IMG/VR virus record: IMGVR_UViG_3300033146_005660
Location: 1-57,058 of that record
Length of the DNA: 57,058 nt
From: a virus
Taxonomy: Duplodnaviria; Caudoviricetes
Reading direction: 5' to 3' (one strand)
Shown in pieces: positions 1 through 29,494 of the stretch. The position numbers were made by a program, and so were the translations under genes. Position 1 is the first letter of the stretch. Each line of letters starts with the position of its first letter. The notes under the pieces were generated by a model. The model did no database searches, was not told the origin of the DNA, and saw only the letters and a list, made by a program, of their open reading frames with translations.

Positions 1-267
1 GGCAACCTAATGCGTTAGCCGGTCTTGCACCGGTCCCTTCGCCATGTTGAGAGACAAGATTCTCTCCGGAGGCTCCATCACCTCGGCAGAAAAAGATGGG
101 TTCCGCGAAGAACTAAAACTAAGGGTTTCCCCGGGCCATAAATCCGGGGGGAGTTGGCCTCTCCCGAAAAAGGCTGCGTTATCTGCACGCGACGTCCTCT
201 GATGTCAAACGCAGCGTAATACCACGGGGAAGCACCGTGGCGCGCTCACCGGCGCGGACAATTGGTA

Positions 268-316
268 GTGCAACGCGACTCAGGGTCGCCATGCTGGTTC
301 AACTCCAGGTTGCACG
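268..316 (+). ncRNA. D-armless tRNA-like element (copy 1)
   Basis: Acceptor-like stem GTGCAAC/GTTGCAC, central hairpin GCGAC-TCAGG-GTCGC, T-arm CTGG-TTCAACT-CCAG. Confidence 0.5.
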
Positions 317-372
317 CAGCGTAATACCACGGGGAAGCACCGTGGCGCGCTCACCGGCGCGGACAATTGGTA

Positions 373-421
373 GTGCAACGCGACTCAGGGTCGCCATGCT
401 GGTTCAACTCCAGGTTGCACG
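373..421 (+). ncRNA. D-armless tRNA-like element (copy 2)
   Basis: Identical to 268-316, within the tandem duplication. Confidence 0.5.
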
Positions 422-524
422 ATAGAGGCCGAGCACATGGCAAGACGTTTGTTGTGTGCTCGTTGTCGCCCGAAAGGGCACGGTGGCCGTGACGTGTACG
501 GTCGTTCATCATACAGGAGGTGTG

Positions 525-725
525 ATGAGATATGAAATGGCTTCGCGGATGGTCGAAGCCATTTTCCAGGGCCGTCTCTGGACGGCGAAAGGTCAACGAG
601 ACCTTCGCCGCATCCTAGAGGCGGCCCGCCGGGAACGGCGGGAATTCGTAAATGAGTTCCCGCCGGATGAGCTCGACGAGCTCATCGAAGGCGCGGCGAG
701 CGCTCTCAGCGTTGTAAACGCTTAG
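525..725 (+). CDS. Hypothetical protein, 66 aa
   Basis: AGGAGG RBS just before ATG 525 (MRYEMASR...). Confidence 0.7.
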   Translation: MRYEMASRMVEAIFQGRLWTAKGQRDLRRILEAARRERREFVNEFPPDELDELIEGAASALSVVNA

Positions 726-835
726 AGCGCTCGCCGGGTTCATCCGGCCGTCACTCCCCGGTGACGTTAAACCATATGGGGCCCCGATCCGGGTGCAGGG
801 TTTGGCAACCCTGGATAGGATGGGCGTACAGCGCC

Positions 836-965
836 CTGAGCACACAGGTGGCATCGAGAGATGTCACCGGGGGTGTCTCAGATGAGGTGCGATAGCACCG
901 CGGGAGTCCCCCGCACGGTAGCCTATACCGGTCACGGAAACATAGGGAAGGCAATTAGATAGCCT
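836..965 (+). ncRNA. Structured repeat element, partial copy A
   Basis: Shares the GCATC-GAGA-(G/A)TGT hairpin, the GGTGC..GCACC stem and GCGGGAGTCCCCCGCACGG with copies at 2112-2337 and 3010-3252. Confidence 0.6.
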
Positions 966-1020
966 TCGCAGGGGCCCGAAGTGGAGCATCGACGGATGTA
1001 AAGCTCCGGGTTCCTGTAGG

Positions 1021-1066
1021 TTCCACTGTGGTCTTAACGGAGGTTCGATTCCTCCGGTGGAAATCA
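1021..1066 (+). ncRNA. tRNA minihelix-like element (acceptor stem + T-arm)
   Basis: TTCCACT/GGTGGAA stem, GGAGG-TTCGATT-CCTCC T-arm, 11-nt linker, 3' ATCA. Confidence 0.6.
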
Positions 1067-1399
1067 AAGGTGCCGCTGCTTCTGAGGCAGTGCTCCGGGT
1101 AGCACCCGGACGAGAGTCAGGCTCGCACCATGACCGTCGTACAGAGTGTTGCTGTACGTGCCTGACCAGTATCGAGGGCAACCGGGCCCCCCTGAGCGGC
1201 AAATCGCCGCTATCGAGCAAGTCCCCCGCGACACAGGGGACATCCGGTAGGGAGAGCACTCTCCCGACCTCGCTCTTAGGAGCGGGATGAGGCCATTGTG
1301 GCCGAAAACTCGACGACGGTGCCGTTGCTCCGCTGTCGTTGAGTCACTGGGCACCCCAAGCAGATAGGGGTGCTCGATGAGCAACAGAAAGGAGGCCTC

Positions 1400-1594
1400 A
1401 TGAAGGCTTCCAAGAATTTCCGTCGCCTGGACGGAGTGGGCTTCGCCGATCTCGGCGAAGCCCACTCCGTCCACGGGCGCGTCTCGGCGAAGGAGCCGAG
1501 ACGCGCCCGTGGGCATCAGCGGTCTCTCCCCTCGTGGGAGAGGCCGCTGTCGTCACTCGGTGACGCCCTCCGCGAGGCGGGCGTCACCAAGTAG
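1400..1594 (+). CDS. Hypothetical protein, 64 aa
   Basis: AAGGAGG RBS before ATG 1400 (MKASKNF...). Confidence 0.65.
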   Translation: MKASKNFRRLDGVGFADLGEAHSVHGRVSAKEPRRARGHQRSLPSWERPLSSLGDALREAGVTK

Positions 1595-1724
1595 CGACGG
1601 ACGAGCAGTAGCGCCATGACGCTGCTCGTCCACAACATCATGGCCCTTCAGTCGTTGGGGATCAACGACCTCCACCGTGCGGAGTAGAGCACGATAGAGC
1701 GCGAACGTGAGTTCGTGAACTCTT

Positions 1725-1790
1725 AACGTCGCTCACAGGGCGCACCGTTGTACGTTACAGGCGTACGAGGACGGGGCTCTGTGGGACCTT
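1725..1790 (+). repeat. 66-bp hairpin leader repeat, copy 1
   Basis: Identical to 2464-2529; folds CTCACAGGGC/GCTCTGTGGG with inner GTACG/CGTAC; lies just upstream of an RBS. Confidence 0.9.
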
Positions 1791-1807
1791 TACTGAAGGG
1801 AGGGCCT

Positions 1808-2095
1808 ATGGCCCGCCGCTGCGCGACGAAGCGCAGCTCCTTTCGTCGTCAGCTGGCGGCGAAACGCCTCAACGGTCTCATGGAAGACCGCGAGGCGGTC
1901 TACGCCGCCAGTAGCTGGCTGTCCCGCCAGGCGGTAATGTCGCCTGGCGGGCGCACCCGGTCGGCGGCGGAATCCGCAGCGTTCAGAACGGAGAACGCTG
2001 CGGAGTTCCGCCGCCTGAGGGTGCAGGCTGCAAAGCTGGAGAGGGAAATCTCAAACGCGCTGTTTGAGATCTCCCTCCTGGCCGGCAGCCGGTAG
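1808..2095 (+). CDS. Hypothetical basic protein, 95 aa
   Basis: GGGAGG RBS before ATG 1808 (MARRCATK...). Confidence 0.65.
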   Translation: MARRCATKRSSFRRQLAAKRLNGLMEDREAVYAASSWLSRQAVMSPGGRTRSAAESAAFRTENAAEFRRLRVQAAKLEREISNALFEISLLAGSR

Positions 2096-2111
2096 CCGGC
2101 AGACGGCGGGA

Positions 2112-2337
2112 CCCCTACGCCCGAGAGGGTGTAACTGCTGTGGATCGTAGATTCACAGCGGCGTAGGGGCGTATGGCACTAACGTAAGTGCTCGGCAAAC
2201 TACTGTCGTGAGCTGACAGGGAGCATCGAGAGGTGTTCCTGGGGCAGTGTAGAGTCAGGTGTTGTCACACCGCGGGAGTCCCCCGCACGGGCCATCCACC
2301 CGTCGACGAGAACTGGAGAGGGTCAACCAGATTGACC
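2112..2337 (+). ncRNA. Structured repeat element, copy B (candidate novel ncRNA)
   Basis: Colinear with 3010-3252; differences cluster as compensatory stem changes; GAGA/GTGA GNRA loops. Confidence 0.7.
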
Positions 2338-2339
2338 GG

Positions 2340-2376
2340 CGTCCCCGTACGAACTGTACGTGCGGGGACGTTTTTT
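2340..2376 (+). terminator. Intrinsic terminator-like hairpin + T6
   Basis: CGTCCCCGTAC...GTGCGGGGACG followed by TTTTTT. Confidence 0.75.
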
Positions 2377-2419
2377 CGCTGTGGTCTTGACGGAGGTTCG
2401 ATTCCTTCGGCGGAAATCA
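2374..2419 (+). ncRNA. tRNA minihelix-like element, copy 2
   Basis: TTTCGCT/GGCGGAA stem, GGAGG-TTCGATT-CCTTC T-arm, 3' ATCA; A-T to G-C covariation relative to 1021-1066. Confidence 0.6.
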
Positions 2420-2463
2420 TCCCGGCCGCAGTAGTGCGGCAACGGAGCTATCCGTGAATAGCA

Positions 2464-2529
2464 AACGTCGCTCACAGGGCGCACCGTTGTACGTTACAGG
2501 CGTACGAGGACGGGGCTCTGTGGGACCTT
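2464..2529 (+). repeat. 66-bp hairpin leader repeat, copy 2
   Basis: Identical to 1725-1790. Confidence 0.9.
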
Positions 2530-2567
2530 CGACGGCTCGCTCTCAAAGGAGCGGGCAGGAGACAAGC

Positions 2568-2990
2568 ATGACCATCAAGGTCATCGCCGAATCTCACGTC
2601 GACCACGGGATCGCCAAACCGGCGCTTCAGTGGCTCCTCGATCGGTTCGCCGATCGTGACGGTTTCTTCATTGAGACCGTGGAGCTACCGGAAGAGCTGG
2701 GGATGGTTCCTTGTGGGTTGCACGGACCGCTGATGGGTGATGAGCCCATCGCCGAGTCCGAAGTGACCTACAAGGCTCGTGGGGAGCGAGGGTACCCCTC
2801 TCGCCTAGCGGATCGTCCCGCGCGCCAAGTGCGCACGGTGACCGTCATCGCTGGGCCCGATGGGGACGAGCCCTGCGTGTTGTACACGGCCTTTGGTGGG
2901 CCGTTGACACCGCAGGAGCCCGGTGATCCGAGCTGTAAGGACTTGAAAGAGTCCCAGCAGTTCTGGTCAACCCACGCGCTTTCCGCGTAG
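2568..2990 (+). CDS. Hypothetical protein, 140 aa
   Basis: AGGAG RBS before ATG 2568 (MTIKVIAESHVDHG...); globular-looking sequence. Confidence 0.85.
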   Translation: MTIKVIAESHVDHGIAKPALQWLLDRFADRDGFFIETVELPEELGMVPCGLHGPLMGDEPIAESEVTYKARGERGYPSRLADRPARQVRTVTVIAGPDGDEPCVLYTAFGGPLTPQEPGDPSCKDLKESQQFWSTHALSA

Positions 2991-3009
2991 GTTCTCCGGA
3001 CCGACGGTT

Positions 3010-3252
3010 CCCTACGCCCGAGAGGGTGTAACTGCTTCGAGTCATAGACTCTAAGCGGCGTAGGGGCGTATAGCACTAACGTAAAGTGCTCGGCAGTCTG
3101 CTGTCGTGAGCTGACAGAGCTTACCGTGAGGTAAGTTCGGGGCAGTGCAGAGAAGAGGTGCAAAGGGTAGCCAATCCCGAAAGCACCGCAGGAGTCCCCT
3201 GCGCGGAGCAACTCTCCGGTCTTTGGAAAGAGTGAGGTTAACCAGATTGACC
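3010..3252 (+). ncRNA. Structured repeat element, copy C (candidate novel ncRNA)
   Basis: Colinear with 2112-2337, with compensatory changes. Confidence 0.7.
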
Positions 3253-3254
3253 GG

Positions 3255-3293
3255 CGCCCCCATGCGAACTGTACGCACGGGGGCGTTTTTTTT
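3255..3293 (+). terminator. Intrinsic terminator-like hairpin + T8
   Basis: CGCCCCC...GGGGGCG followed by TTTTTTTT; homologous to 2340-2376. Confidence 0.8.
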
Positions 3294-3379
3294 AATGTCC
3301 AGGAGTACCCGGGCCTGGAGCTCTGCTTGCAGAGAATAGTACGGGATTATGATAACCACCCACGGGAAGGAGAAACACC

Positions 3380-3433
3380 ATGGGTGACGTTGTCAAAGAG
3401 GCCGTTCGGATCATTATCCGGACGGGCTCGTAG
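3380..3433 (+). CDS. Possible 17-aa peptide MGDVVKEAVRIIIRTGS
   Basis: Strong GGAAGGAG RBS at canonical spacing; below the ORF-track cutoff. Confidence 0.4.
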   Translation: MGDVVKEAVRIIIRTGS

Positions 3434-3510
3434 AGACTTCCCGCGCCGAGCGGTCAACAATCGGCGCGGGTAGAGACTTCCCGCGCCGAGCGGTCAACAA
3501 TCGGCGCGGG
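3430..3510. repeat. Perfect tandem duplication of a hairpin, 40-bp period, 2 copies
   Basis: GTAGAGACTTCCCGCGCCGAGCGGTCAACAATCGGCGCGG twice; each copy has a CCCGCGCCGA/TCGGCGCGGG stem. Confidence 0.95.
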
Positions 3511-3515
3511 AACTC

Positions 3516-3584
3516 GTCTGCAGTCCAGGAGACCCTGAGCGTGCTGTTGCGCGAGCAGGTGAGGTTCGACACCTTATGCGGACA
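3516..3584 (+). ncRNA. Degenerate cloverleaf tRNA-like element
   Basis: GTCTGCA/TGCGGAC acceptor stem, CAGG/CCTG mini D-arm, CGTGC/GCGCG arm with non-canonical loop, TGAGG-TTCGACA-CCTTA T-arm; no CCA. Confidence 0.55.
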
Positions 3585-3675
3585 TTGTGTGCTCCACGGT
3601 GGAGTACATATTAACCAGGGTGCCCTTGGGTGCCCGTATTTGAGCCCGGATTAGATTCGGGCGAAGGAGGACATC

Positions 3676-5553
3676 ATGTCCAATCTTCAAACTTCCGCGC
3701 GCACCAACACCAACACCACCGCCAGCGCCAGCGCCGCGACGGCGGCGTTCCTGTTAGAGATGGCCGAGGAGTGGGGCTCGGCCAACCCGCGAGCGGTCGC
3801 GAGGTGGTCTAGGCCCCTCGCGGCCCCCGAGGTCGATCGGCCCAAGAGGCCGATGACAGAAAGGAGGTACGTCGCGGCCGTCCGCGACGTCCTCCGAAAT
3901 CTCCGCCGCGATGCGGAGTTCTCGGGGGACGACGCAAAGGCCGGTTATTACGACGGCCTGGCGGGCGAGGACGCCAGGCTGATCATCGGCCTGGGCCTCA
4001 ACCACATCCGGCCCCTTGACTGGGGTCGGATGGATCGGCGAGTCGACGGGGCGCTCGCCGAGTGGCATCGGCTGATGCCCCGATCTGGGGTTGTTGGGTC
4101 GACCAACAACCTCGACCCCGAGTTCTTATTTGCCCTCTACAGGGCGAAATGGACGCGGGGACTCCCGACGCCCGTCGGGGAGAAGCATTGGATTGACCTC
4201 GGGTCGGTCCAGTGGTTCCTCCAGAGGGCGTTCCGCCAACGCGACTGGCGGACCTTCCTCTGGATCTGGCGGAATCCAGAGGAGGCGGCGTTCGTCGGAG
4301 ACCGTTCCTACGGGAACCTCCGGCGAGTCGCCAAGGGCGGCCTCCGCATGAGGTGGGCAATCCGCTTCATGCGGAACCGCGCTCGGCACGAGCACGGTGG
4401 ATGCACCTCCTGGCTACAGAGCCAGGAGGTGCACTGGGAGGCCACCCTGGAGGAAATCCAGAGGGCCAGGGAGGCCCTCTGGGTCGAACTTGCTCGCCTT
4501 CTGCGTGGCGACGACTTCTGGGAGGTCGTCGCGCCAAAGAAGGCGACGTGGATCCGCTACCACCGGCGGATCCCAACCGGCGAACTCGGAGACTTCCTCG
4601 TCCGGGAGGTCCCCAAGTCGGAGATCAAGAACCTCGTGTGGAAGAAGTTCCACGAGGTGTTCCGGCATCTCCAAGACTTGGGGCTCCACCTGGAGGACGC
4701 CGCTAAGGGAGCCATTGCGCTCATCGGCGTCTTCGGTCCACGTTGGAAGACGTGGCTCCAGAGAATGGAGGCTCGGCACGTTGGCGCTCACAACGCCACG
4801 TACTGGCTCCCTGCGGCCACGCAGCCCGATCTGGGCGCGTGGTTGCTGCGTCACCTGGAGACCAACCAGGAGACGCTCCGGCTTGTGGTGAGCCGGTGGG
4901 AGGACCTCTCGGACGAGGACAGGAAACTCCCCACTGCGAAGATCGTCGCCGTGATCCGTGCGTCTGCGTACGGAAGCGAGGCGAGCCTCAACCGCGCTCT
5001 TGCCGAAGAGTGCGGCCGGTGGGGAGTCTCCAAGGAGAGGTTCTCGAAGTACGTTCGAAAGTACTCCGGGAGCCTCTCAGGCCTCAAGGAGGAGACCGTC
5101 CCTGGCTTTCCGCCGGTCAAGGACGGTGAGCTCACCGCATACCGTCTGGCGCGCGGTGATGTTCGGGGGCTTTTCCTCGGCGAGCACACGAACTGCTGTC
5201 AGTCCGTGGGAAACGTTGCCAAGTCATGCGCTTGGCACGGTGCCACGGGCCGCGACGGCGGGTTCGTGGTCGTCGAGCGCCAAGGCCAGATTGTGGCTCA
5301 GAGCTACGTCTGGCGCGACGGAGCTCACCTGGTGTTCGACTCGCTCGAATGCCTTGGTGAGCGGAAGAAGTTCCGCCCGATCATGCTGGCGGCGGCCAGG
5401 GAGATGGTCGGGCGACTCGGCGTCGGAGGCGTGTACGCCGGCGACGGATACGGCACGTCGGATGAACGGATTCGGAATCCGTTCATCCACAAGGCGATGT
5501 ACAGTGCGGACTCGGAGATGGTCCGCCTTGTCGCTGGAAAGGCGGTGAAATAA
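3676..5553 (+). CDS. 625-aa protein with a C-terminal PcfJ/GNAT-like domain
   Basis: AAGGAGG RBS; C-terminal LGEHTNCCQ..SCAWHG..GFVVV..IVAQSYVW..LVFDSLE pattern; family name is tentative. Confidence 0.6.
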   Translation: MSNLQTSARTNTNTTASASAATAAFLLEMAEEWGSANPRAVARWSRPLAAPEVDRPKRPMTERRYVAAVRDVLRNLRRDAEFSGDDAKAGYYDGLAGEDARLIIGLGLNHIRPLDWGRMDRRVDGALAEWHRLMPRSGVVGSTNNLDPEFLFALYRAKWTRGLPTPVGEKHWIDLGSVQWFLQRAFRQRDWRTFLWIWRNPEEAAFVGDRSYGNLRRVAKGGLRMRWAIRFMRNRARHEHGGCTSWLQSQEVHWEATLEEIQRAREALWVELARLLRGDDFWEVVAPKKATWIRYHRRIPTGELGDFLVREVPKSEIKNLVWKKFHEVFRHLQDLGLHLEDAAKGAIALIGVFGPRWKTWLQRMEARHVGAHNATYWLPAATQPDLGAWLLRHLETNQETLRLVVSRWEDLSDEDRKLPTAKIVAVIRASAYGSEASLNRALAEECGRWGVSKERFSKYVRKYSGSLSGLKEETVPGFPPVKDGELTAYRLARGDVRGLFLGEHTNCCQSVGNVAKSCAWHGATGRDGGFVVVERQGQIVAQSYVWRDGAHLVFDSLECLGERKKFRPIMLAAAREMVGRLGVGGVYAGDGYGTSDERIRNPFIHKAMYSADSEMVRLVAGKAVK

Positions 5554-5667
5554 TTAACCTGGAGCATCGATACCAGCACTGCTCCCGTTCATATACAACC
5601 GCGTTCCGAGCACAGAGCTGCACGGTCCGGAACGCAAACTCGCATGTGCAGCAGAAAGGAGGCCCAC

Positions 5668-6369
5668 ATGGCTTCCAAAACAGGAGGGGGGCTCAAGCCC
5701 CTCCCCGGCGTTGGCGTTAAGGCGCCGCGCCGGAACAAGCCTCGCGAGCGCGCGATGGCGAGCGAAGTGCGCTCGCGAGGCAATGCCTTGCCCGGGGAAA
5801 CCCGATCCCGCATGACGGGATTCCCCGGGCTTGTTGGGGCTCGAGTCGACTTCGAGCCCCAACTCATCGTCGCCGTCGGGGCGGCGGGTTCTGGACGACT
5901 GGCGTGGACGAACGCCGTCGTCGGGACCTGGCCGTCCCGACGGGAAGACTCTCGGGGCGCGTTGATCGTGGCGCGCCCCACAGATTTCTTCTCCGCGGAG
6001 GGCATCAAATACTCCGGGGAGAAGATGCGCGAGGCAGGCCAGTGGGCCTTGCGCGCAGTGATCGAGGGCGCGCGAGTCGGCCGCGACGTCCTCGCCGACG
6101 GTGGGACGGGAGCGTTCTCCGCGCTCTCGCCCATCGTTGAGATCGGCCTCGCGTATGGCCTGTCCATACGCGTGGTCATCTTCGTCTCTGACGTCCGCAC
6201 GTGCTCGTCCCGCGTGCGGACGTCAGATCGGGTCCTCGACCGCCAAGTGCGGCGTGTCGAGCGCCTTGTGGAGACCTGGCCAGGCTTCTGGCCAACTCCC
6301 GAGGTCCTCGACGTCCGCGAAGGCGGCGAGGACCTGAGACGCCTCCAGCAGTGGGGCGTCGACATCTAA
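5668..6369 (+). CDS. Degenerate P-loop kinase (AAA_33/PNK-like)
   Basis: AAAGGAGG RBS; LIVAVGAAGSGR Walker-A-like motif with K replaced by R; resembles 10523-10963. Confidence 0.6.
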   Translation: MASKTGGGLKPLPGVGVKAPRRNKPRERAMASEVRSRGNALPGETRSRMTGFPGLVGARVDFEPQLIVAVGAAGSGRLAWTNAVVGTWPSRREDSRGALIVARPTDFFSAEGIKYSGEKMREAGQWALRAVIEGARVGRDVLADGGTGAFSALSPIVEIGLAYGLSIRVVIFVSDVRTCSSRVRTSDRVLDRQVRRVERLVETWPGFWPTPEVLDVREGGEDLRRLQQWGVDI

Positions 6370-11370: not shown

Positions 11371-11404
11371 GAAGAGCGTTAACCACACGCTCTTCTTTAG
11401 CTAT
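11371..11404 (+). terminator. Hairpin + TTTAGCTAT terminator motif
   Basis: GAAGAGCGT-TAACCAC-ACGCTCTTC-TTTAGCTAT. Confidence 0.7.
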
Positions 11405-13110
11405 CAGTATCTCCCTTGGGAAATCATCCCCGCCAAGCGAGAGTAGATCTGAGAGTGCATGGCGTCATCGGGCTGGTCGATGGGGTGATCGTAATACATG
11501 GTCTTCTGGCGCTCGTTGTAGTCGATGTACACGCCAAGCGTGTCCTTTGCGAACCTCGCGTACTCCTCCCATCTCGCGTACATGATCTGTTGATGCTTGA
11601 GGGCATCGATGTAGTTAGAGATCGCCATGGAACGGTTGACCTTGAAGTTGAAGGCCAGGTCGTCCCATTTGATGCGCTCGCGCATCTTCCCCACGTAGTT
11701 GAATTCCATCACGCGCTGACGACCAAGCTTATTGATCAGATGGCTATTCATCCCCCAGCCATGACCATAGTCGACGCCCAAGATTTTCACGTTGAACCGG
11801 TGGAACAGGCGAACGATGTCCTCCTTGACGAACTCCGGGTCAATCTCGGCCCCCTCATACTTTTTGATAAAAAACGGCCAGAAGAGGTCTTCATCGAGAA
11901 AAGTCCCGATCGTTAGGACCGTGAAGGATGCATGCCGCTTCTTCCCCCCGACAACCTTGCCCTCGGACCGACCCTCTCCCCAGTCGACACCGCCAAAGTT
12001 GTCACGTCCGAGGAGCTCGCGGTACGGCTCGAGAATAAGGTGCTCCGAGTCGATTCCGCTCTTCTTGTTGATAGGCCAGCAGCACTGCATGATTTCCGTC
12101 TGAGTAACAGGCTTCGATGCTTGGTCGTGGCTCTCCCCGAGGACCTCGTTATAAAAGACGGCTGGAGGCCAGTTGTCTCGCTTCCAGACAATGTCCTTTT
12201 TCCAGCGATCCCCGCCTTGCTTCCAGGGGACCATAAGCTGCGTAACATGGAATCCCGTGTACTCACCGCCCGGGTTGGTGACCACCCATCGACCTTCTTC
12301 GGGATGAATCCTGTTGCCGCACTTTCCGCAGATAAGTCCATCGTTCCCGATGTTATCGAGGCCCAGGACGTTCCAGTGGATTGGTGTGTGCATATTGCAG
12401 GGAATGGCCCACTCCATCTGGGTCGACCACTGCCAATACTCCTCGATGGTGTTGTCCAGCGTCTTGGGCGTTCCCGCGTAGAGTTCGTATGCGTACTCAG
12501 AGAAGCTCAGAGACTCCGCAATGACTTTGACGTTGTCCTTGAGTATGTCCTGTATCTCATCCAGGTAAAGCCTGTCAGCGGGGATACCACGCGCTCTGTC
12601 AGCGGACAGGAAGGCATAACGGAGGAAAATGTGCGCGGCGTTCGTGAACGTCTTCTCGTAGACCTGGTCAATGCACTTCTTGTCCGTGAAGTGGTCGTGA
12701 ACGATCGGAGAGTCATTGATAGTCGGCGTCAGCTTCTCATTGGAAAACTGGCGGGTCTGCATTGAGCTCGGGCTCACATACAAGGTCCTGAATGCCTCGT
12801 AGACAATGGACTCGGCCACCATGAGGTTGGCCAACGTGGTCGACTTGGCTACCTGCCTTCCACACTTGAGGATGGTGAGCTGCGTGCTCGAGTCATAGAC
12901 GGGGAGGAAGAACCTGTGCTGATCTAATCTTAAAGGCTTCCTACGGTGCACCAGGAGGGCCTGAGCCACGCTTGACCTTGTAGCGCTGATGATCGTCTTC
13001 TTCTTCCCCTTGTGCCTCCCAGTCCCGTGTATGACCTTCCTGCGAGCAGGAAACTTCCTCCCATCATCTTTTTTGTCAAATTCGGACTGATCTTGTAAAC
13101 TCATTTCCAT
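11404..13110 (-). CDS. terL: Terminase large subunit
   Basis: GRQVAKST Walker A, LYLDEIQD Walker B, GTPKT motif III, GVDWG and PDDAMH nuclease motifs. Confidence 0.9.
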   Translation of the reverse strand: MEMSLQDQSEFDKKDDGRKFPARRKVIHGTGRHKGKKKTIISATRSSVAQALLVHRRKPLRLDQHRFFLPVYDSSTQLTILKCGRQVAKSTTLANLMVAESIVYEAFRTLYVSPSSMQTRQFSNEKLTPTINDSPIVHDHFTDKKCIDQVYEKTFTNAAHIFLRYAFLSADRARGIPADRLYLDEIQDILKDNVKVIAESLSFSEYAYELYAGTPKTLDNTIEEYWQWSTQMEWAIPCNMHTPIHWNVLGLDNIGNDGLICGKCGNRIHPEEGRWVVTNPGGEYTGFHVTQLMVPWKQGGDRWKKDIVWKRDNWPPAVFYNEVLGESHDQASKPVTQTEIMQCCWPINKKSGIDSEHLILEPYRELLGRDNFGGVDWGEGRSEGKVVGGKKRHASFTVLTIGTFLDEDLFWPFFIKKYEGAEIDPEFVKEDIVRLFHRFNVKILGVDYGHGWGMNSHLINKLGRQRVMEFNYVGKMRERIKWDDLAFNFKVNRSMAISNYIDALKHQQIMYARWEEYARFAKDTLGVYIDYNERQKTMYYDHPIDQPDDAMHSQIYSRLAGMISQGRY

Positions 13111-22298: not shown

Positions 22299-23258
22299 CT
22301 AAAGCTTCCTTGTCCCCAGACCGTTGAGTTCCCCGAGCATGTCCTGGTAGAACTTTCTCTTCGATGGGGGTGCCTGCGGTTCCGTCCCAGGTTTTCCTAT
22401 TTTACTCGTCTTGGGCTTGGGCGGCGAGGTGATCCAGCTCGATCTGGCGCTCTTGACCTTGGATCCCACGGCCTTCTTGGACGCCGTCTTCTCCTGCTTC
22501 TTCTCAGCGTAGTCCTTGACGGCTTTGGCTATCATGGGTGCCGTGAGCGCTGGAATGGCGCTGACCACGTAGGTCATGAACGCCGGCAACAGCGTGGCCA
22601 TGGATTTGATCGCCGCACGGTTTCCCTCGATCGCCCTGATTGCCCTTGTTCCATGGATTGACGCCCTGGCCTCCTCGAGAACGTCCGGAATATGAGGAGC
22701 CACCGAAACGAGAGGGGCATACTTGCTCACCGTGTCGTTATCCGACATGGCCATCCCGATTCCCGTTCCCATAAAGGCCGGTCTCGCCACGTCCCTTGCT
22801 TTGACGAGCGTGGACAGCGTGGAGATTGGCGATGGAACGTTGTGTCCAACCTCGTGGGCAATTGTCGCCGGGTTCCCGGAGCTCAGGAATATCCTTGGCT
22901 TGACGCGTTCGGCGAACTCCGATGTTTCCTTTCCGAAGATTTTCGGGTGGCCTTTCAGCGTCTCAATGGTTTGCCTTGGTATCGTGAGCGACTCTCCGCC
23001 AACTACCGTACTGACATGCGGGACATTCAGATACTCCTCGTATTGAAGCTTTCTCGCGAGGGCCTCAAAATCAACGGAGCCAAGCCATCTCCCGATGTCT
23101 TTTTTATCGTAAGATCCATGAATCGAATCGATGATATTTGAGAGGGGATCTATGATTGCCCTGGAGGCCCCTGTCTCGCTGGTGGCAACCCCGGACAGCG
23201 CTCCGTACATTCTCGGAAGCTGAGACCTGTTGATGTCAGAATTCTCATTGTCGCCCAT
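22299..23258 (-). CDS. Zincin metallopeptidase-like protein (Zn_peptidase_2/YugP-like)
   Basis: AHEVGH (HExxH), LEEARAS third-ligand motif, AFMTYV. Confidence 0.7.
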   Translation of the reverse strand: MGDNENSDINRSQLPRMYGALSGVATSETGASRAIIDPLSNIIDSIHGSYDKKDIGRWLGSVDFEALARKLQYEEYLNVPHVSTVVGGESLTIPRQTIETLKGHPKIFGKETSEFAERVKPRIFLSSGNPATIAHEVGHNVPSPISTLSTLVKARDVARPAFMGTGIGMAMSDNDTVSKYAPLVSVAPHIPDVLEEARASIHGTRAIRAIEGNRAAIKSMATLLPAFMTYVVSAIPALTAPMIAKAVKDYAEKKQEKTASKKAVGSKVKSARSSWITSPPKPKTSKIGKPGTEPQAPPSKRKFYQDMLGELNGLGTRKL

Positions 23259-26200
23259 CAGTATCTGCCCTTCTCTCCGGTTCCGAATTCAGCGCCATAT
23301 GCAAATGCGGGGACAGGGGAGTATCCGTGAATGTCCGACGTCCAGCCTTCTCCGGCGCCCTGCTGGATTGCCCTAGCAATGTGACCATATCCTAGCTGTG
23401 CCATCCAGTCTTTACTGAGAAGCGGAACCTGCTTGATTCCCTCCATGAACGGCTTGTGGACGATGGGCTCCGGGCCGATATGAACCTCGGTGTGACCAAG
23501 ATTCTTGAGGATATCAGCTACCCTCTTGGTGATCTCGGTTCCCTTTTTGACCGGGCCATAGGACCTGTGAAGTGTTTTCCCAAGGGCTTCACCGAGACCA
23601 ACTCGCCCGAGCGCCTTCTTGTTAAAAGACTCTGCAAGTGAATAGGGGATCACGTCTCCGAGGGTATAGGGGGAGCTCCCACCGTCGACAACTCTCGTTG
23701 TGTTCGAGACGGACTGAACGACTGTCTCGACGTTCTTCTTCAAGATGTTGAACCCCGTGTCCTTGTACGCCGAAACGATCTCGTCAACGAGGTACTTCTG
23801 TGCCGGAAGCATTCCCTTGAGGTCCACGAGCTCCCGGGGCTGAATGATTCCATCGGAGATCGGGTCTCCTTTTTTGATGGTTGAGCCGATCTTTACCTTG
23901 AGGGAGTTTCCCGGGGAAACAAAGTGCTTGGTTGATCCAATGAACACGTTTTTTCCGCCGGTCATGGCGTTTTCTATCGAGGTAACTTTTCCGTCATGGA
24001 GTGAAAGCGTCGCCTTGCCGGCGATAATCTTCGGCATCTTGATCAGTTTGTCGATCTTCTCGAAGCCCGTGACGTTCTTCGAGCCACTGACGCCACCGGA
24101 ATGCATGGTGTTCAGCGTCATCTGGGTCAGAGGCTCAGTCATCGACTGACCGGCGATGGCCCCGATGTTCGTACCGAGCTCAGGGAACTTGCCCGTGCTG
24201 TCCAGGCCATAACAGGATGAGCACACGCCATCGGACAGACCGCAGGTGAGCGGCGATGAACACTTGACCTTCTTGACCTTGTGCTTCCTGAACGTGGTCA
24301 CCATGTTAGGCGTGACGATGTCTCCCTGGCGGGCAAGGACCTTTCCTCTGGACTTGACGTCCTGAACGAGGACGCGGTCGTTTACGTTCGAGTCGTTGAT
24401 GTCGAAATCAAGTCCATTGTCCGTGTTGCACTTTTCCTGGGTGACAACAGATCGAACCACGGTGGCCATGAGGTCTTTGTTGAACTCGCCAGGCTTCGAG
24501 GTCTGTAGCTGCTTGTCGACAACGCCCTTGCGCGCACCGTACAGGCTGTTCCAGTAATCAGGGAGAGACATTCCCGTCGAGAAAGACCCCTCGATGGCTA
24601 TGGGAAGCGTGTTCCCGTTGACATCGTCGACGAGCAGCGGTGCGCTGACAATTTGCTTGAGCTGATTCATATCCCCGCGGGCACCGGATTGGACCATCTT
24701 GTACAGGTTGTTCCCCTGCTCCCCGAGGTCATGAGCAATCATCACTTTGAGCTTTTTGTCGACTTCCCGGTAAAGCTTCACCTTCTTGTCGTCGCTCATA
24801 TTCTTGGATGCACGACGCGCATCGTCCAGGAGCTTCTGTCTTCCCTTGATGACCGGCTGAACGTCGTCGATGCTCACCGTGAACCCCCGGGCAAACGCAT
24901 GCTCATTTCCGAGCTCCGTGAGCTTGTCAACGGTGTTCGCGTATTCTGCGGGGTTGTCGTTGGCGATCTCCGTGAGAAGCTTCTTGATCCCCGATTTATC
25001 AAGGAGACCGCTTCGACCGCGGTATTTCTCCGGGAGAACCGCGTCGATCAACATCCTTCCCGCCGTGGTGTTTTTCCCGGCGACCCTGACCATATCCTGG
25101 ATGTCGATGTCACCCTTCTCGAGTGATGTGCTCAGGGCCTCCGCGTTCTTGAAACTCTTCTTTGTCCTTTTCCCGCTCTTGCTCAGGAAGTAAAGACCTA
25201 TGGAGGATTCCTGTGACGGTGCCATCATGATCGCACCGGTACCTGGGTTGAACAGGTTGCGGGACGGCAACATCTTCTTGGCTTCTTCGACTGCCTTTGG
25301 CATGATGGGAACGTGTACGTGCATAGTGTCCCCGTCAAAGTCCGCATTGAAGCCCTTAACAATGAGCGGTGGAATCTTTATAGCCTTCCCGGCTATGAGC
25401 TTGGGGTTGAATGCCATTACATTGAACTTGTGAAGTGATGGAGCTCTATTCAGGAAGATGGGACGCTTGGCCATAACGGCTTCAAGGGCCTTGCGTGCCA
25501 CGAAGCTCTGGTTCTCGATTTCCTTGTCTGCGTCCGTCGCCTTGTAGCCCTGACCCACGAGCTCGCGCATCACGAATGGTTGGAATATGGTCCACGCCAT
25601 CTTCTCGGGAATCCCCGCCTCGTCGATTCCAAGCTTGGGCTCGGGAATGATCGTCCCGCGACCCACGAGATCCTGTTCCCGGCGAAGCACATGTTTCTGG
25701 AAGAAACCCGTCTTCGATCCTGCCCCCGCGTTTCCCTTGATCTCCTCAATGATCCCCCTGGGGCGTCTCTTCTTCGGATAGTACGTGATTGGATTCGACG
25801 AGATACCAGCAACGGCGGCCGCGCCCCTGTAGAGGTCTCTGCGTAGATCACTCTTGGCGTCCTCGGGCATGTACTCGAGCTTGTTGAAGGATCTAAGCTT
25901 ATCGCTGACGAGCCCAAGATCTCTGTACAGGAAGTTCACGGGAGACGTGTGGAGGTTCCCGTCGGGAAGCGCGTAAATAGGCCGGAAGGCCGGGGGAAGC
26001 ACGGGGACTCGATTTAGGATGTATGCATTCTGCGGTTTCAGGTTGAGCTTCTTGAGCGCCTCAAGGTAGCGGATGCCCTTGTTGGCGTTGTTGACCGTGG
26101 TCATCGACTTGGACTTGCGTGCCGATGTCTTGAAGGTCCTCATGGACTTTTCAACATCGAGCTCGGTCAGAAGCCTCAGGAAAGCATTCCCTCCCGTGAG

Positions 26201-29200
26201 TCCCTTCTCTTCGTTGATGTCCCCCTGCTCGTCGACGAACATCGAACCGTTCGTGATCCCATCGAATGTCTTCTTGTTGATGCCCAACAGTGATCGAACG
26301 GGCGCCTCGAACACGGGGTTAACGATGGGCTCCGCGAGCTCGATGTGAGACCACTTGGTTCCCCTGAGGCCCCCCGTTATGGTCTTGTCCATGAGGCCAC
26401 CACGGAGTTCCGCGAGGTCCTTGGCTCTCACGAACTGAGGATTCTTGATCTCCCCGTTGCTGAGCTTGGAGATCTCCTTGTCCGTCATGGGCGCTAGTGT
26501 GAGCTCGCTGCCGCTTTGCTTGACGTCGACGCCCGCGGCCTTCATGTACGAAATGAACTTGTTGTAGGCGAACGTTGGTTTCGGTGGAGGAAGGATGTCC
26601 CCGGTTTTCAGAGCGTACCAGAAGTCATCGTTTCTCGTTGCCTTGTGGGTCGCCATCTCCCGGAGGTTGTGACGAGCACCATGGGCGAGCATCGAGTAGA
26701 ACATGAGGAGGTCGACGGCTTTCGCCCCGGGCTCCCCGCCCTTGACGGGTTCATTGGTCGACTGGTTGTATTTCCATCCAGCACCCGCACCGCGGGCACT
26801 GAACTGGCTCTTCGCCTGCTTTTCGAGCTTCAGAACATACGTTTCTCCAACGGCGACCTGACCGAGCGACTTTCCGGACAGTGGGTCAAGGAGCTCCTCG
26901 GTGCCCTTCATTCCATTCTTCTTCAGGAGGTCCTTGATGGTCTTCGTGTAGTTTTCGTTCGAGAAGTTGTTGACGACGTACGTTGAGCCCGTCTTTTTGG
27001 CAACCTTCCCCGCGGCGTTCTCGAGAACCTGGCCAATGTTCATTCTCGTCACGATGCCATGCGGGTTGTACATGATGTCGACGGGGGTCCCGTCCTTCTC
27101 ATGTGGCGCCTGATCGACGGGAATGATCTTTGTGACAATCCCTTTGTTTCCGTAGCGTCCAACGAGCTTGTCACCAATTTTTGCTGGCTCCTCGGTGCGA
27201 ATGTAGACCTTGGTGTGCTTTCCCTTTCGGACGACGTCGACAACGCGCCCCTTGGTATCGCCTTCCCATTTGATGCTGTCGTCTTTCCAGGGTCGCATGA
27301 GGGAACGAGCGAGCTTGCCGAACACGATGTTCTCAGGGTCGATCTCGTCCTTCCGAAGCTTGGTGATCACGGGGTCACCTGGATTCAGAAGGGTACCCTT
27401 CTTGACGACACCGTCTTCACCGAGCTTGGAAACCTGGTCCTTTTTGTAGGCGTTCGGGTAGTGGGCTACGAACTTCTTCTTGTTTAAGACGGCTCTGTCG
27501 GACTCGGTCGCTGAGTCGATGTGCATGTGCTCCGACGTCAGTTTCTTGGCCGCCTCGTCGGTGATGACAATGCCGTCCTCGAAATTGTACCCCTTGTAGG
27601 GGATGTACGCTGTTCTCAGGTTCTTCCCGAGCGCGAGGACCCCGTCGTCCGTGAAGTTGGTGTCCGCGAGAACCTGCCCCTTCTTGACGATGTCCCCCTC
27701 CTTGATCTTTACGATCGAGTCGATGAAGGACTTCTGGTTCAAGGGGAAGTTATCGTACAGGTTGATTGTGTGTTTTGTACCCATATTGTCTTTGACGACA
27801 ATATGGTTTTTGGTGACCTTGCTGATGACACCTTTGGTTGGGGACCTGAAGGCAAATGCATCACCGAGGAGTCCCTCGAATGTTGTGTTTCCGCCCACTC
27901 GGGATTGCACGAGTGGTTTCTCCCGGTGCTTCAGGGACACAGCTTGTTCGGCGAGCTTTGAGGCGATGAGCGTTCGACCACCGTTGTTGTTCTGGATGAA
28001 CGGCGTGAGGTTCGTGGCCATCGAGAACACCTGCTTGGGGGATTGCAACGTGTAGTCAACGTCTTTTGCTTTGACGGTGACCGTTTTGTTGCCCTTCCCG
28101 AGGGCAATGATCTCCTTGGGGTCCTTCCATTTTTTTGCACGAGCATCGTATTGCCCCGGGAAGGCCACTACGGAATCAGCGAACTGCGCTGGGTCAATCT
28201 TTTCAAGGTCTCCGGTTCGCACGTTGATTGCCCGGGTGAGCAGTGTCTTGTCCTTGGAGTCCACGCCGACCGGAAGATGATAGACGATTCCAACCTTGTC
28301 GCTCTCCGGCGTGTGGACGGGGTCCACGAACCCAAGATGCGATGGATGAACGTTTCGCATGTCATCGGTGATCGTGTGCCTGTCGTTGATTCCCCCGGGT
28401 CCCATGATGGTCAGGAGTGTCGACGAGTTGTACATGTCCAGAGGGTTCAATTGTTTCGGAAGCTGATGGAGTTCCGGGAGGGCAAACACGGACTCGATAT
28501 GCGGTCCGATGACCGTTGAGTTGATGACTTCGTCAACGCCCTCTCTGGCACTCGAGTTCAGGTTGTTCGCGATCGTCTTCTTGATTTTCCCGCTGAATTC
28601 CCCCATGGAGAGACGTTCTTCAACGAGGTCCTGGATCGTCCGGTACTCCTTGAACTCGAGCGAGTTGCGATCGTGAGGCTCCTCCTCGCCCTTCATGACG
28701 TTGAGGAGTCTCCCTGACAGGTCGGCAAGGAACTGGCCAGTCATCTTGTTGTACTTGCCGCCCACGGTTCTGTCGTTGACCTTGGGGTCCATCTTCGTGC
28801 GCTCAACGAACTCCCTGATGTCCTTGGCGGCAGATTCCCCATCGGAATACGATTTCCCGGTCACAGACTTCGCAAAGCTCTTCAGGGAGCCCGCGAACTC
28901 CGAGGACTTCATCTGCTTGTTCGCCTCCAGAACGCCCTGGCCCCACTTCTTGGCCAAGAGGGAGTCGGATACCCCGAGGGCGCTGAGTATCGGGTAGAGG
29001 CGCTGCTTGGCCTGCCCGACGTTGATACGGAAGACGCCAGTCTCCTGGTTGGCTGTCATGCCAATCTGACCCGAGTAGCCTTTGGCGAGGTTGATTTGCC
29101 CCTTGACCAGTCCGTTCTGGGACTTGACCGTGTAGCCGGCAGGACGGAGCCGTAGCTGGTTGGCGATCTGGTGCTCGCTGCCCTTGATGATGTAGGAGAA

Positions 29201-29494
29201 CCTCGGGGTGAGCTTGGGGAGCGTGGCGAGACGGACTTTTTTCTTTTCGGAGACGACCTTCCCGTTCTTGTCCTTGATCTTGAATGAACCGTAAATGGGG
29301 ATCCCCCACGTGCGGTCCCCGACCTTCACCTTCCTCTGCGCGTTGTAATCCTCGACATCAAGATTGTCGTCGGCCCAAATGCTTGCGAGCTCCAAGGTCT
29401 TGTCCCGTCCATGAACGGGAAACAGGCCCTTGATGGACTTCACGGTTGTCTCGGATAACTCTTTTGACTGCTTCTCAATATTGAAATTATCCAT
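23258..29494 (-). CDS. rpoBC: Single-chain fused beta/beta' DNA-directed RNA polymerase
   Basis: Beta motifs HTPESDKVG, GYNFEDG, GDKLVGRYGNKG, NPHG..TRMNIGQ; beta' motifs LNRAPSLH, NADFDGD, SGARG, GQSMTEPLTQMTL..HSGG. Confidence 0.95.
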   Translation of the reverse strand: MDNFNIEKQSKELSETTVKSIKGLFPVHGRDKTLELASIWADDNLDVEDYNAQRKVKVGDRTWGIPIYGSFKIKDKNGKVVSEKKKVRLATLPKLTPRFSYIIKGSEHQIANQLRLRPAGYTVKSQNGLVKGQINLAKGYSGQIGMTANQETGVFRINVGQAKQRLYPILSALGVSDSLLAKKWGQGVLEANKQMKSSEFAGSLKSFAKSVTGKSYSDGESAAKDIREFVERTKMDPKVNDRTVGGKYNKMTGQFLADLSGRLLNVMKGEEEPHDRNSLEFKEYRTIQDLVEERLSMGEFSGKIKKTIANNLNSSAREGVDEVINSTVIGPHIESVFALPELHQLPKQLNPLDMYNSSTLLTIMGPGGINDRHTITDDMRNVHPSHLGFVDPVHTPESDKVGIVYHLPVGVDSKDKTLLTRAINVRTGDLEKIDPAQFADSVVAFPGQYDARAKKWKDPKEIIALGKGNKTVTVKAKDVDYTLQSPKQVFSMATNLTPFIQNNNGGRTLIASKLAEQAVSLKHREKPLVQSRVGGNTTFEGLLGDAFAFRSPTKGVISKVTKNHIVVKDNMGTKHTINLYDNFPLNQKSFIDSIVKIKEGDIVKKGQVLADTNFTDDGVLALGKNLRTAYIPYKGYNFEDGIVITDEAAKKLTSEHMHIDSATESDRAVLNKKKFVAHYPNAYKKDQVSKLGEDGVVKKGTLLNPGDPVITKLRKDEIDPENIVFGKLARSLMRPWKDDSIKWEGDTKGRVVDVVRKGKHTKVYIRTEEPAKIGDKLVGRYGNKGIVTKIIPVDQAPHEKDGTPVDIMYNPHGIVTRMNIGQVLENAAGKVAKKTGSTYVVNNFSNENYTKTIKDLLKKNGMKGTEELLDPLSGKSLGQVAVGETYVLKLEKQAKSQFSARGAGAGWKYNQSTNEPVKGGEPGAKAVDLLMFYSMLAHGARHNLREMATHKATRNDDFWYALKTGDILPPPKPTFAYNKFISYMKAAGVDVKQSGSELTLAPMTDKEISKLSNGEIKNPQFVRAKDLAELRGGLMDKTITGGLRGTKWSHIELAEPIVNPVFEAPVRSLLGINKKTFDGITNGSMFVDEQGDINEEKGLTGGNAFLRLLTELDVEKSMRTFKTSARKSKSMTTVNNANKGIRYLEALKKLNLKPQNAYILNRVPVLPPAFRPIYALPDGNLHTSPVNFLYRDLGLVSDKLRSFNKLEYMPEDAKSDLRRDLYRGAAAVAGISSNPITYYPKKRRPRGIIEEIKGNAGAGSKTGFFQKHVLRREQDLVGRGTIIPEPKLGIDEAGIPEKMAWTIFQPFVMRELVGQGYKATDADKEIENQSFVARKALEAVMAKRPIFLNRAPSLHKFNVMAFNPKLIAGKAIKIPPLIVKGFNADFDGDTMHVHVPIMPKAVEEAKKMLPSRNLFNPGTGAIMMAPSQESSIGLYFLSKSGKRTKKSFKNAEALSTSLEKGDIDIQDMVRVAGKNTTAGRMLIDAVLPEKYRGRSGLLDKSGIKKLLTEIANDNPAEYANTVDKLTELGNEHAFARGFTVSIDDVQPVIKGRQKLLDDARRASKNMSDDKKVKLYREVDKKLKVMIAHDLGEQGNNLYKMVQSGARGDMNQLKQIVSAPLLVDDVNGNTLPIAIEGSFSTGMSLPDYWNSLYGARKGVVDKQLQTSKPGEFNKDLMATVVRSVVTQEKCNTDNGLDFDINDSNVNDRVLVQDVKSRGKVLARQGDIVTPNMVTTFRKHKVKKVKCSSPLTCGLSDGVCSSCYGLDSTGKFPELGTNIGAIAGQSMTEPLTQMTLNTMHSGGVSGSKNVTGFEKIDKLIKMPKIIAGKATLSLHDGKVTSIENAMTGGKNVFIGSTKHFVSPGNSLKVKIGSTIKKGDPISDGIIQPRELVDLKGMLPAQKYLVDEIVSAYKDTGFNILKKNVETVVQSVSNTTRVVDGGSSPYTLGDVIPYSLAESFNKKALGRVGLGEALGKTLHRSYGPVKKGTEITKRVADILKNLGHTEVHIGPEPIVHKPFMEGIKQVPLLSKDWMAQLGYGHIARAIQQGAGEGWTSDIHGYSPVPAFAYGAEFGTGEKGRY

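Follow-up and report, generated by a model that had tools for sequence, protein, structure and literature searches.

A multi-helix RNA motif of no known family, repeated in a cassette system of a phage genome fragment

Several described RNA elements share features with the one reported here. The lambda nut and HK022 put sites are cis-acting RNAs of phage early transcripts that govern passage through terminators; they consist of one or two hairpins near the promoter and use small GNRA-type hairpins as recognition elements. In the T7 early operon, the intercistronic RNase III sites are single irregular hairpins, while the PeSLs of T4-like phages, at about 50-70 bp, combine a sigma-70 promoter with one stem-loop. 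In ON riboswitches of the adenine-sensing pbuE type, the 3' strand of the closing helix is also the 5' arm of an intrinsic terminator. Finally, GOLLD and ROOL are complex multi-helix phage RNAs of unknown function that often lie beside tRNA genes. Here we describe a plus-strand RNA unit that occurs three times near the start of IMG/VR virus record IMGVR_UViG_3300033146_005660, a linear phage fragment (CheckV completeness 31%) that was analysed over its whole length of 57,058 nucleotides, hereafter the window. Overall, the unit is a new structured RNA motif, explained by no known family, and it stands in a cassette system that is PeSL-like in its logic.

As described by Arbiol et al. (2010; PMC2839356), PeSLs are cassettes of promoter and terminator stem-loop that drive modular shuffling, and by that description the present locus resembles them in its short repeated intergenic cassettes, its plastic early region, its small and often ORFan flanking genes, its effective terminator stem-loop, and the loss or replacement of genes where copies recombine. 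It differs from PeSLs in the size of its units (240-290 nt), in the 11-13 helices that are kept by compensatory change, and in that a scan of positions 1-6000 found no sigma-70-like promoter in or beside them. With the pbuE type of ON riboswitch the units share a closing helix that uses one strand of the terminator, an arrangement in which a stabilised fold would give read-through; unlike that type, they sit after an open reading frame (ORF) and far from the next start codon, they have an extra upstream competitor, and one copy has no terminator. They also differ from those riboswitches in matching no Rfam riboswitch model and in having no gene association. Relative to nut and put, the element is several times larger and lies directly against its terminator. 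It resembles GOLLD and ROOL in being a complex multi-helix phage RNA with tRNA-like elements adjoining it, but it gives no score with the Rfam models, is much smaller, and occurs as three paralogues in tandem cassettes of what is so far one lineage. Like the T7 RNase III sites, the units would be repeated structured elements between early genes of one transcript; here, however, each is a branched domain, with a terminator in two of the three copies.

The three copies lie on the plus strand at approximately 779-1017 (copy A), 2110-2376 (copy B) and 3007-3293 (copy C), and their divergence leaves 75-84% identity. BLAST of positions 2100-2380 against the record recovers 3010-3291 (75% identity, E = 2e-47) and 837-918 (77%, E = 5e-11), and in the repeat listing the shared sequence is covered by families D2, D4, D6, D7 and D8. 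A covariance model of 63 pairs, built from B and C and run with filters off on both strands of all 57,058 bases, scores C (3007-3257) at 291.8 bits, B (2110-2342) at 278 and A at 83.1 (E = 4e-27); the fourth-best of the 33 matches listed (E up to 10) reaches just 10.3 bits. A first-pass annotation, made from the sequence alone, had placed all three copies correctly and had made each of them too short.

Copy B comprises a 5' domain, a multi-helix 3' domain and an intrinsic terminator. The 5' domain is a three-way junction of P1 (7-8 bp; 2113-2119/2162-2168 in B), a 3-bp GNRA-capped stub (P1a, 2120-2122/2127-2129) and the 12-bp P2 (2135-2146/2150-2161), a hairpin whose distal half covaries. The 3' domain then follows in the order P3, P4, Pout enclosing the GNRA-capped Pa, the abutting helices Pb, Pc and Pd, a purine-rich linker and Pe, and it carries conserved unpaired nucleotides at its junctions. 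Six of the nine pairs of Pa covary. The most conserved piece is Pc (2272-2286 in B, family D8), a 5-bp stem around an invariant AGTCC (AGUCC) loop, with equivalents at 900-914 in A and at 3188-3202 in C, the latter with one G-C to A-T compensation. Copy C has the same helices, its Pb carrying an inserted extension at 3157-3187. Directly 3' of the domain, two of the three copies (B and C) have GC-rich hairpins of 14 bp at their ends, with runs of 6 and 8 T, respectively, behind them. The terminator scan places the hairpin of B at 2338-2372 with its T-run at 2371-2376; in C, the helix mapping puts it at 3253-3287, where 13 of 14 pairs form around one A-C mismatch, and the T-run lies at 3286-3293. 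Two pairs of these terminator stems covary between B and C.

Copy A shares the 3' domain of B and C and differs in its 5' part. Its helices are P4 (822-826/832-836), Pout (841-843/873-875), Pa (847-855/860-868), Pb (886-890/895-899), Pc (900-904/910-914), Pd (916-920/926-930) and Pe (947-952/962-967), and they are followed by a terminal hairpin (968-978/1007-1017) that has no T-run. The model aligns an upstream hairpin of A (692-736) to P1 and P2, although this placement is unstable, with a start at either 692 or 729.

The common fold thus has 11-13 helices, and 13 helices could be mapped by hand, by coordinates, in the copies. Among the 83 mapped pairs, 53 are invariant, 5 show a one-sided change, 23 keep pairing although both bases change, and 2 are broken in one copy. 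All six compensations quoted in the first-pass annotation appear in the helix table: GCTG/CAGC to GCTT/AAGC and GGATC/GATTC to GAGTC/GACTC, both in P2; the changes described for the GNRA-capped Pa; CTAC/GTAG to CTGC/GCAG; GGTGT/ACACC to GGTGC/GCACC; and, in Pc, GCGGG/CCCGC to GCAGG/CCTGC around the unchanged AGTCC loop. In a three-row alignment fitted with the model, 96.5% of cells pair, against 83.2 +/- 2.1 in shuffles, and two-sided change is seen in 22 of 63 pairs, a count that none of 500 shuffles attains (8.0 +/- 2.2 in these); when the partners are slid by 1-3 columns, pairing falls to 37-48% and two-sided pairs to 0-2. Both this alignment and its structure were derived from the very sequences under test, which biases the comparison in their favour, and an independent fold-transfer test between B and C was therefore added. 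When the minimum free energy (MFE) fold of B alone is mapped onto C, 11 pairs are broken, against 27.5 +/- 3.4 for random substitutions; when that of C is mapped onto B, 5 are broken, against 25.4 +/- 3.4 expected. In neither direction do any of 10,000 simulations give a count as low as that observed.

Strand and stability point the same way. In each copy the fold of the plus strand is the more stable one, by 17-22 kcal/mol over the minus strand, in agreement with the earlier proposal of a plus-strand structured RNA, and the G-U pairs and GNRA loops on which that proposal drew are present. MFE z-scores are -5.4 for B and -4.5 for C, with none of 200 shuffles equally stable. There is no open frame common to the copies: all six frames are closed by stops in A and likewise in B, and copy C is open in one minus-strand frame. 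Since stops interrupt every frame of A and B and single-base indels distinguish B from C, the element is to be regarded as acting at the RNA level and not as coding sequence. We consider it very likely that this is a genuine plus-strand RNA structure under selection. The structured, sensor-type domain is backed by covariation, in a comparison that comprises three paralogues only and, because the element is so far confined to one lineage, is not a phylogeny.

The claim that this is no known riboswitch, ribozyme or intron holds up well. At gathering thresholds, Rfam 15 gives no match anywhere in the 57,058 bases (riboswitches, ribozymes, introns, GOLLD, ROOL, HEARO, raiA, phage pRNA, tmRNA and others included), and at E up to 10, in stretches of 331 to 57,058 bases, the matches that overlap the units reach 7-19 bits, against thresholds of 40-95. 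ARAGORN calls no tRNA or tmRNA gene in the window. Resemblances to hammerhead and T-box-like RNAs, group I and II introns, RNase P, SRP, phi29 pRNA and IscB/TnpB guide RNAs were considered and set aside, as they have no Rfam score and the partner genes are absent. The Pc motif occurs nowhere in the viral contigs of IMG/VR, twice in GTDB genomes and 18 times in JGI metagenomes, and at those sites there is no likeness in the flanks and no model score above 11.6 bits. A gapped junction pattern matches 3 viral and 6 genome loci, none of which scores with the model or looks alike by eye. For scale, the candidate motifs of a structured-RNA survey of IMG/VR v3 (PMC10690425) span 29-151 nt, and a piece of the present element might be among them.

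The alternative pairings of the 5' segment TACGCCC bear most directly on what the units might do, and the three partners proposed for it do exist. For the 5' strand of P1, a local GNRA hairpin of 7 bp is an alternative. The other strand of P1, which is G-rich, in turn overlaps the 5' strand of a further 7-bp helix, P-close, which would close the whole 3' domain (2166-2172 with 2339-2345 in B; 3063-3069/3254-3260 in C; 779-785/971-977 in A). P-close has seven of seven standard pairs in each of the three copies, its letters in A (GGGCCCC/GGGGCCC) differing from those of B and C, and in all copies its 3' strand is part of the 5' arm of the terminal hairpin. In B, this arm (2338-2351) contains the P-close 3' strand, and the segment is therefore common to two structures that would exclude each other. 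Calculated duplex energies for B and C are -11.8 kcal/mol for the local hairpin, -23.0 and -20.3 for P1, -17.7 and -21.3 for the segment paired with the terminator arm, and -27.5 and -25.8 for the terminator; a fold constrained to contain P-close lies 12.7 (B), 4.1 (C) and 4.5 (A) kcal/mol above the MFE. When the transcripts are folded stepwise as they lengthen, P1 and the local hairpin take turns in both B and C, and in C P-close is present at lengths 3271-3283, to be displaced by the terminator at full length. Between B and C, the segments with more than one partner differ at 2 of 47 positions, against 40 of 223 elsewhere (Fisher p = 0.015 in a post hoc test), and both differences fit every proposed pairing: one turns a C-G pair of P1 into U-G, and the other turns a G-U pair of P-close into G-C and is compensated in the terminator. 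The word "switch-like" in the first-pass annotation thus gains some support from the conserved multi-partner segments and from the closing helix that links them to the terminator and can form in all three copies; this helix has no covariation between B and C.

Each unit belongs to a cassette with the layout of a conserved leader (D3), a variable small ORF, the RNA unit and a terminal hairpin. The units lie between consecutive ORFs of the same strand, B starting 16 nt past the stop codon of ORF3 (1808-2095, plus strand, 95 aa) and C 18-19 nt past that of ORF4 (2568-2990, plus strand, 140 aa), and they end 190-380 nt upstream of the next start codon. ORF3 is an ORFan with no relative among 5.8 billion clusters, and Pfam and PHROGs give nothing for ORF1-3. 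The arginine-rich N-terminus of ORF3 raised the idea of an N-like antiterminator, which we set aside, arginine being a common residue where coding is GC-rich. ORF4 belongs to a widespread conserved family of hypothetical proteins of about 138 aa, in which S-H-x-D-H close to the N-terminus and a C-terminal H-A-L are invariant (589 matches, the closest among those listed at about 52-70% identity and all called hypothetical). Its structural model (pLDDT 94) finds no informative match, the best in the PDB being itself a hypothetical protein (E = 3e-3).

Two further elements recur in the cassettes. The 66-nt D3 leader is found at only two sites in the window, both on the plus strand and 94% alike with an identical core: 1724-1790, before ORF3, and 2463-2529, before ORF4. 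It folds into a stem of about 10 bp that includes G-U pairs (z = -2.7 and -4.1) and is a candidate leader or phage-polymerase recognition site. A promoter scan of positions 1-6000, limited to the sigma-70 type, gave two sites, neither of them in or beside a unit or D3. The second element, family D9 (89%), is a tRNA-like minihelix that follows B at 2372-2419, starting within the T-run, and has a sister after A at 1019-1066, again on the plus strand; copy C has none. Its parts are an acceptor-like stem of 7 bp, a linker of 11 nt and a canonical T-arm; both the D arm and the anticodon arm are absent. The two minihelices differ by one compensatory change in the acceptor stem, and their folds weakly beat shuffles (z = -1.6 and -1.7). 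Neither is called by ARAGORN, only their T-arm matches a tmRNA model (7-11 bits), and the minihelix motif has no match in viral contigs. The minihelices may be substrates of RNase P or the CCA enzyme.

The surrounding genes offered further routes to relatives of the RNA. The window encodes a fused beta-beta' multisubunit RNA polymerase in a single ORF of 2078 aa (23258-29494, minus strand; Rpb2_6 E = 1e-60, Rpb1_5 E = 8e-28), with full-length relatives at 35-41% identity in three IMG/VR contigs. Searched with the model, four of four whole records (those of the three polymerase relatives and that of the viral locus L006, where an ORF4 relative sits in a tight ORF array without the RNA) lack the RNA. 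The closest record (G002, 113 kb) has neither the RNA nor a comparable hairpin-rich or GC-rich region. At 22 viral loci with ORF4 relatives (23 loci in all, L038 being left out as a duplicate of L006) the RNA unit has no match. ORF4 therefore looks like cargo and the RNA like part of the cassette frame. No ORF4 relatives were found in the genome contigs of GTDB, and no relatives were found by way of the large terminase subunit (TerL) or a 625-aa ORF downstream of the cassettes. The covariance model suggested by the annotation finds the three copies and has no match in the related records, no homologue emerged from the motif scans of IMG/VR, JGI metagenomes and GTDB genomes, and the proposed "family" stands as three diverged copies in, so far, one phage lineage only.

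Near-identical variants of the locus do occur in other metagenomes. Contigs from four sequencing runs in three studies (labelled hydrothermal vent, sediment, or carrying no label) match parts of 700-3700, and those parts of this region that no contig covers carry no meaning; among the five runs returned for the region, no RNA dataset is listed. One contig, covering 1909-2376, has 15 differing letters, of which the 12 listed all fall at 1968-2083, inside ORF3; it keeps the ORF3 frame with five residue changes, and at most three unlisted differences could fall in the 265-nt RNA unit. Changes at 3209 and 3211, common to two runs, lie within the Pd loop. In another contig, a B-type Pa with a different GNRA loop continues as C-type sequence and so constitutes a recombinant copy. 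A joint from 2368 to 3284 (depth 2, its shorter side 62 letters long) takes out exactly one cassette, from one terminator to the other, and a second cassette-sized deletion joins 1316 to 1558 (depth 6.6). With one contig per event, these data suggest that the repeats act as DNA sites for cassette loss and exchange, a role compatible with every reading of the RNA discussed below.

Our tentative preference, which we hold at somewhat less than even confidence, is that the units are riboswitch-like conditional terminators that gate read-through between early-gene cassettes. What the sequence itself establishes is the strand, the fold with its compensations, the terminators and the alternative complementarities, together with the lack of an Rfam match; the switching, its trigger and the control of read-through we infer. 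The place of the units, between consecutive same-strand ORFs of a phage with an RNA polymerase of its own, also counts in favour of this reading. Each unit would be the structured 3' module of an early-gene cassette and would work at the RNA level on the plus strand. For example, consider a transcript on which the folded domain is stabilised, whether the agent is the polymerase itself, a protein or a small molecule. P-close would then hold and, as its 3' strand belongs to the 5' arm of the terminator, that arm would be sequestered and transcription would read through into the next cassette. Where the domain is not stabilised, P1 and the terminator would form and transcription would stop. The design would be that of an ON riboswitch or a factor-dependent attenuator, with the choice between P1 and the local hairpin as an upstream competitor, and at the DNA level the repeats would double as homologous sites for the loss or exchange of cassettes. 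Rather than being a noncoding RNA gene in its own right, the motif may belong to mRNAs and act in cis.

Several observations weigh against this model. In B, the 7-bp register of P-close never appears in the stepwise MFE folds, and the terminated state is favoured by 12.7 kcal/mol. Because P1, P-close and the local hairpin do not vary pairwise between B and C, covariation cannot prove them, and their support consists of thermodynamics and a single conservation test made post hoc. The core is also present in copy A, where no T-run follows the terminal hairpin, and control of termination is therefore not the whole function. A riboswitch would not usually lie directly after an ORF and 190-380 nt ahead of the next start codon, and because the element is known from one phage lineage only, there is no gene association to hint at a ligand. 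As for the exchange of cassettes, the joint from 2368 to 3284 is a single contig at depth 2.

A bolder extension of the conditional terminator, which we regard as unlikely, is that the motif defines a class of large regulatory RNA that is new and restricted to phages with their own multisubunit RNA polymerase. Here an ornate sensor of a metabolite, a phage protein or the polymerase would time the early genes through serial terminators, with the three paralogues as successive gates and the minihelices marking ends in a manner dependent on RNase P. Should the switching model hold, the motif would offer a new aptamer or attenuator fold, and the phage would program its early transcription with serial RNA gates and not with protein antiterminators, beside its own beta-beta' polymerase. 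Whatever its function, the motif is a well-defined candidate, with 11-13 helices, an invariant loop and conserved junctions, and lends itself to structure probing, termination assays and ligand screens; the cassette layout, together with the deletions seen in other metagenomes, shows how ORFan genes can swap in a phage distant from the T4-like ones for which cassettes of this kind were described. The restriction to one lineage is the main limit on its importance.

The main rival to conditional termination, to which we assign a smaller though still appreciable chance, is that the units are stable noncoding RNAs, derived from 3' untranslated regions or independent, that act in trans or as scaffolds for a phage or host factor. 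Their 3' ends would be made by the terminator in B and C or by RNase P at the minihelix in A and B. This would suit three diverged paralogues with a common ornate core, in which the junctions and one loop are invariant; it would suit copy A, which lacks a T-run yet is followed directly by a minihelix, while B has both; and it would suit the variant contig over 1909-2376, in which all 12 listed differences lie upstream of the RNA. The same minihelices also count against it, as their z-scores are so modest and copy C goes without one. In addition, the promoter scan gave no sigma-70-type site beside any copy, and no target or partner can be named.

We think it distinctly unlikely that the units are plain PeSL-type cassettes for regulation and recombination, in which the RNA would be only a terminator and a stabiliser of mRNA 3' ends and the repeats would persist because they mediate the shuffling of ORFans. 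The units do flank variable small ORFs, one of them an ORFan, and end in terminators, the two contig joints and the recombinant of B and C are what such cassettes would leave behind, and the region from 1 to 6.3 kb is packed with perfect hairpins. For this purpose, however, one hairpin suffices, and the 11-13 helices, conserved junctions, three GNRA loops, invariant pentaloop and 23 double compensations would go unexplained. Recombination substrates should moreover homogenise, and not diverge to 75-84% identity with compensation, and the scan places no sigma-70-like promoter in or beside the units.

Still less probable, to judge from the sequence, is cleavage between the cassettes of a polycistronic early transcript, whether by a self-cleaving ribozyme of a new kind or at a site dedicated to RNase processing. 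The intergenic, same-strand position 16-19 nt after stop codons would be apt for such a site, as would a complex fold with conserved unpaired junction nucleotides, and the nearby tRNA-like elements suggest punctuation of the RNase P type; against this, no ribozyme class known to Rfam matches, nothing in the sequence points to a cleavage site, and the terminators already separate the transcripts. That the motif is a very divergent member of a known family missed by the Rfam models is highly improbable: covariance models are indeed less sensitive to distant or large RNAs, but at E up to 10 the best matches overlapping the units reach 16-19 bits, far under their thresholds of 42-95, and ARAGORN finds nothing. 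Least credible of all, and very unlikely, is that there is no functional RNA here, only chance hairpins in a region of 62% GC that is rich in hairpins, or part of a coding repeat that the one open minus-strand frame of C might suggest, in view of the stops in all frames of A and B, the one-base indels between B and C, the 11 and 5 broken pairs where about 26 would be expected, and the asymmetry between strands.

The remainder of the record includes a large terminase subunit (11404-13110, minus strand; phrog_675, E = 2e-58) and a weakly matched portal (33422-35422). GC content is 62-65% in the first 6 kb, against 50-58% in the remainder, and perfect hairpins of 8-21 bp crowd positions 500-6300 (about 30 in the first 6.3 kb) and are almost absent from 12-57 kb. 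Some of these hairpins lie inside ORFs, such as those that span 1400-1594 and 1808-2095 and the 625-aa ORF (3676-5553). In one of the metagenome runs (X2), a 22-bp hairpin at 1428-1473 in ORF2 stays paired by virtue of double compensations at 1436/1465 and 1437/1464 and of two changes that wobble pairing tolerates, with indels that sum to multiples of three; in another (X1), a hairpin at 1963-2015 in ORF3 shows one compensated pair, one wobble and three broken pairs. The hairpins in ORF2 and ORF3 appear to be under coding and hairpin constraints together.

Two perfect tandem repeats also lie in this region. The first, a duplication of 105 nt at 209-418, is possibly an assembly artefact; in the 3' half of each unit (about 268-315), an acceptor-like stem of 7 bp, a T-like arm and a short hairpin give the look of a tRNA without a D arm. 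The second, a 40-nt tandem at 3430-3509 in which each unit is a 10-12-bp hairpin, stands directly after a 17-codon ORF (3380-3433) and upstream of the 625-aa ORF. The latter matches nothing in Pfam or PHROGs, its nearest Atlas neighbours are unnamed clusters, and a PcfJ-like lead there is weak, at a score of only 0.80. Farther along, the 313-aa ORF at 7533-8474 matches the MYG1 exonuclease family at its N-terminus (E = 2e-9).

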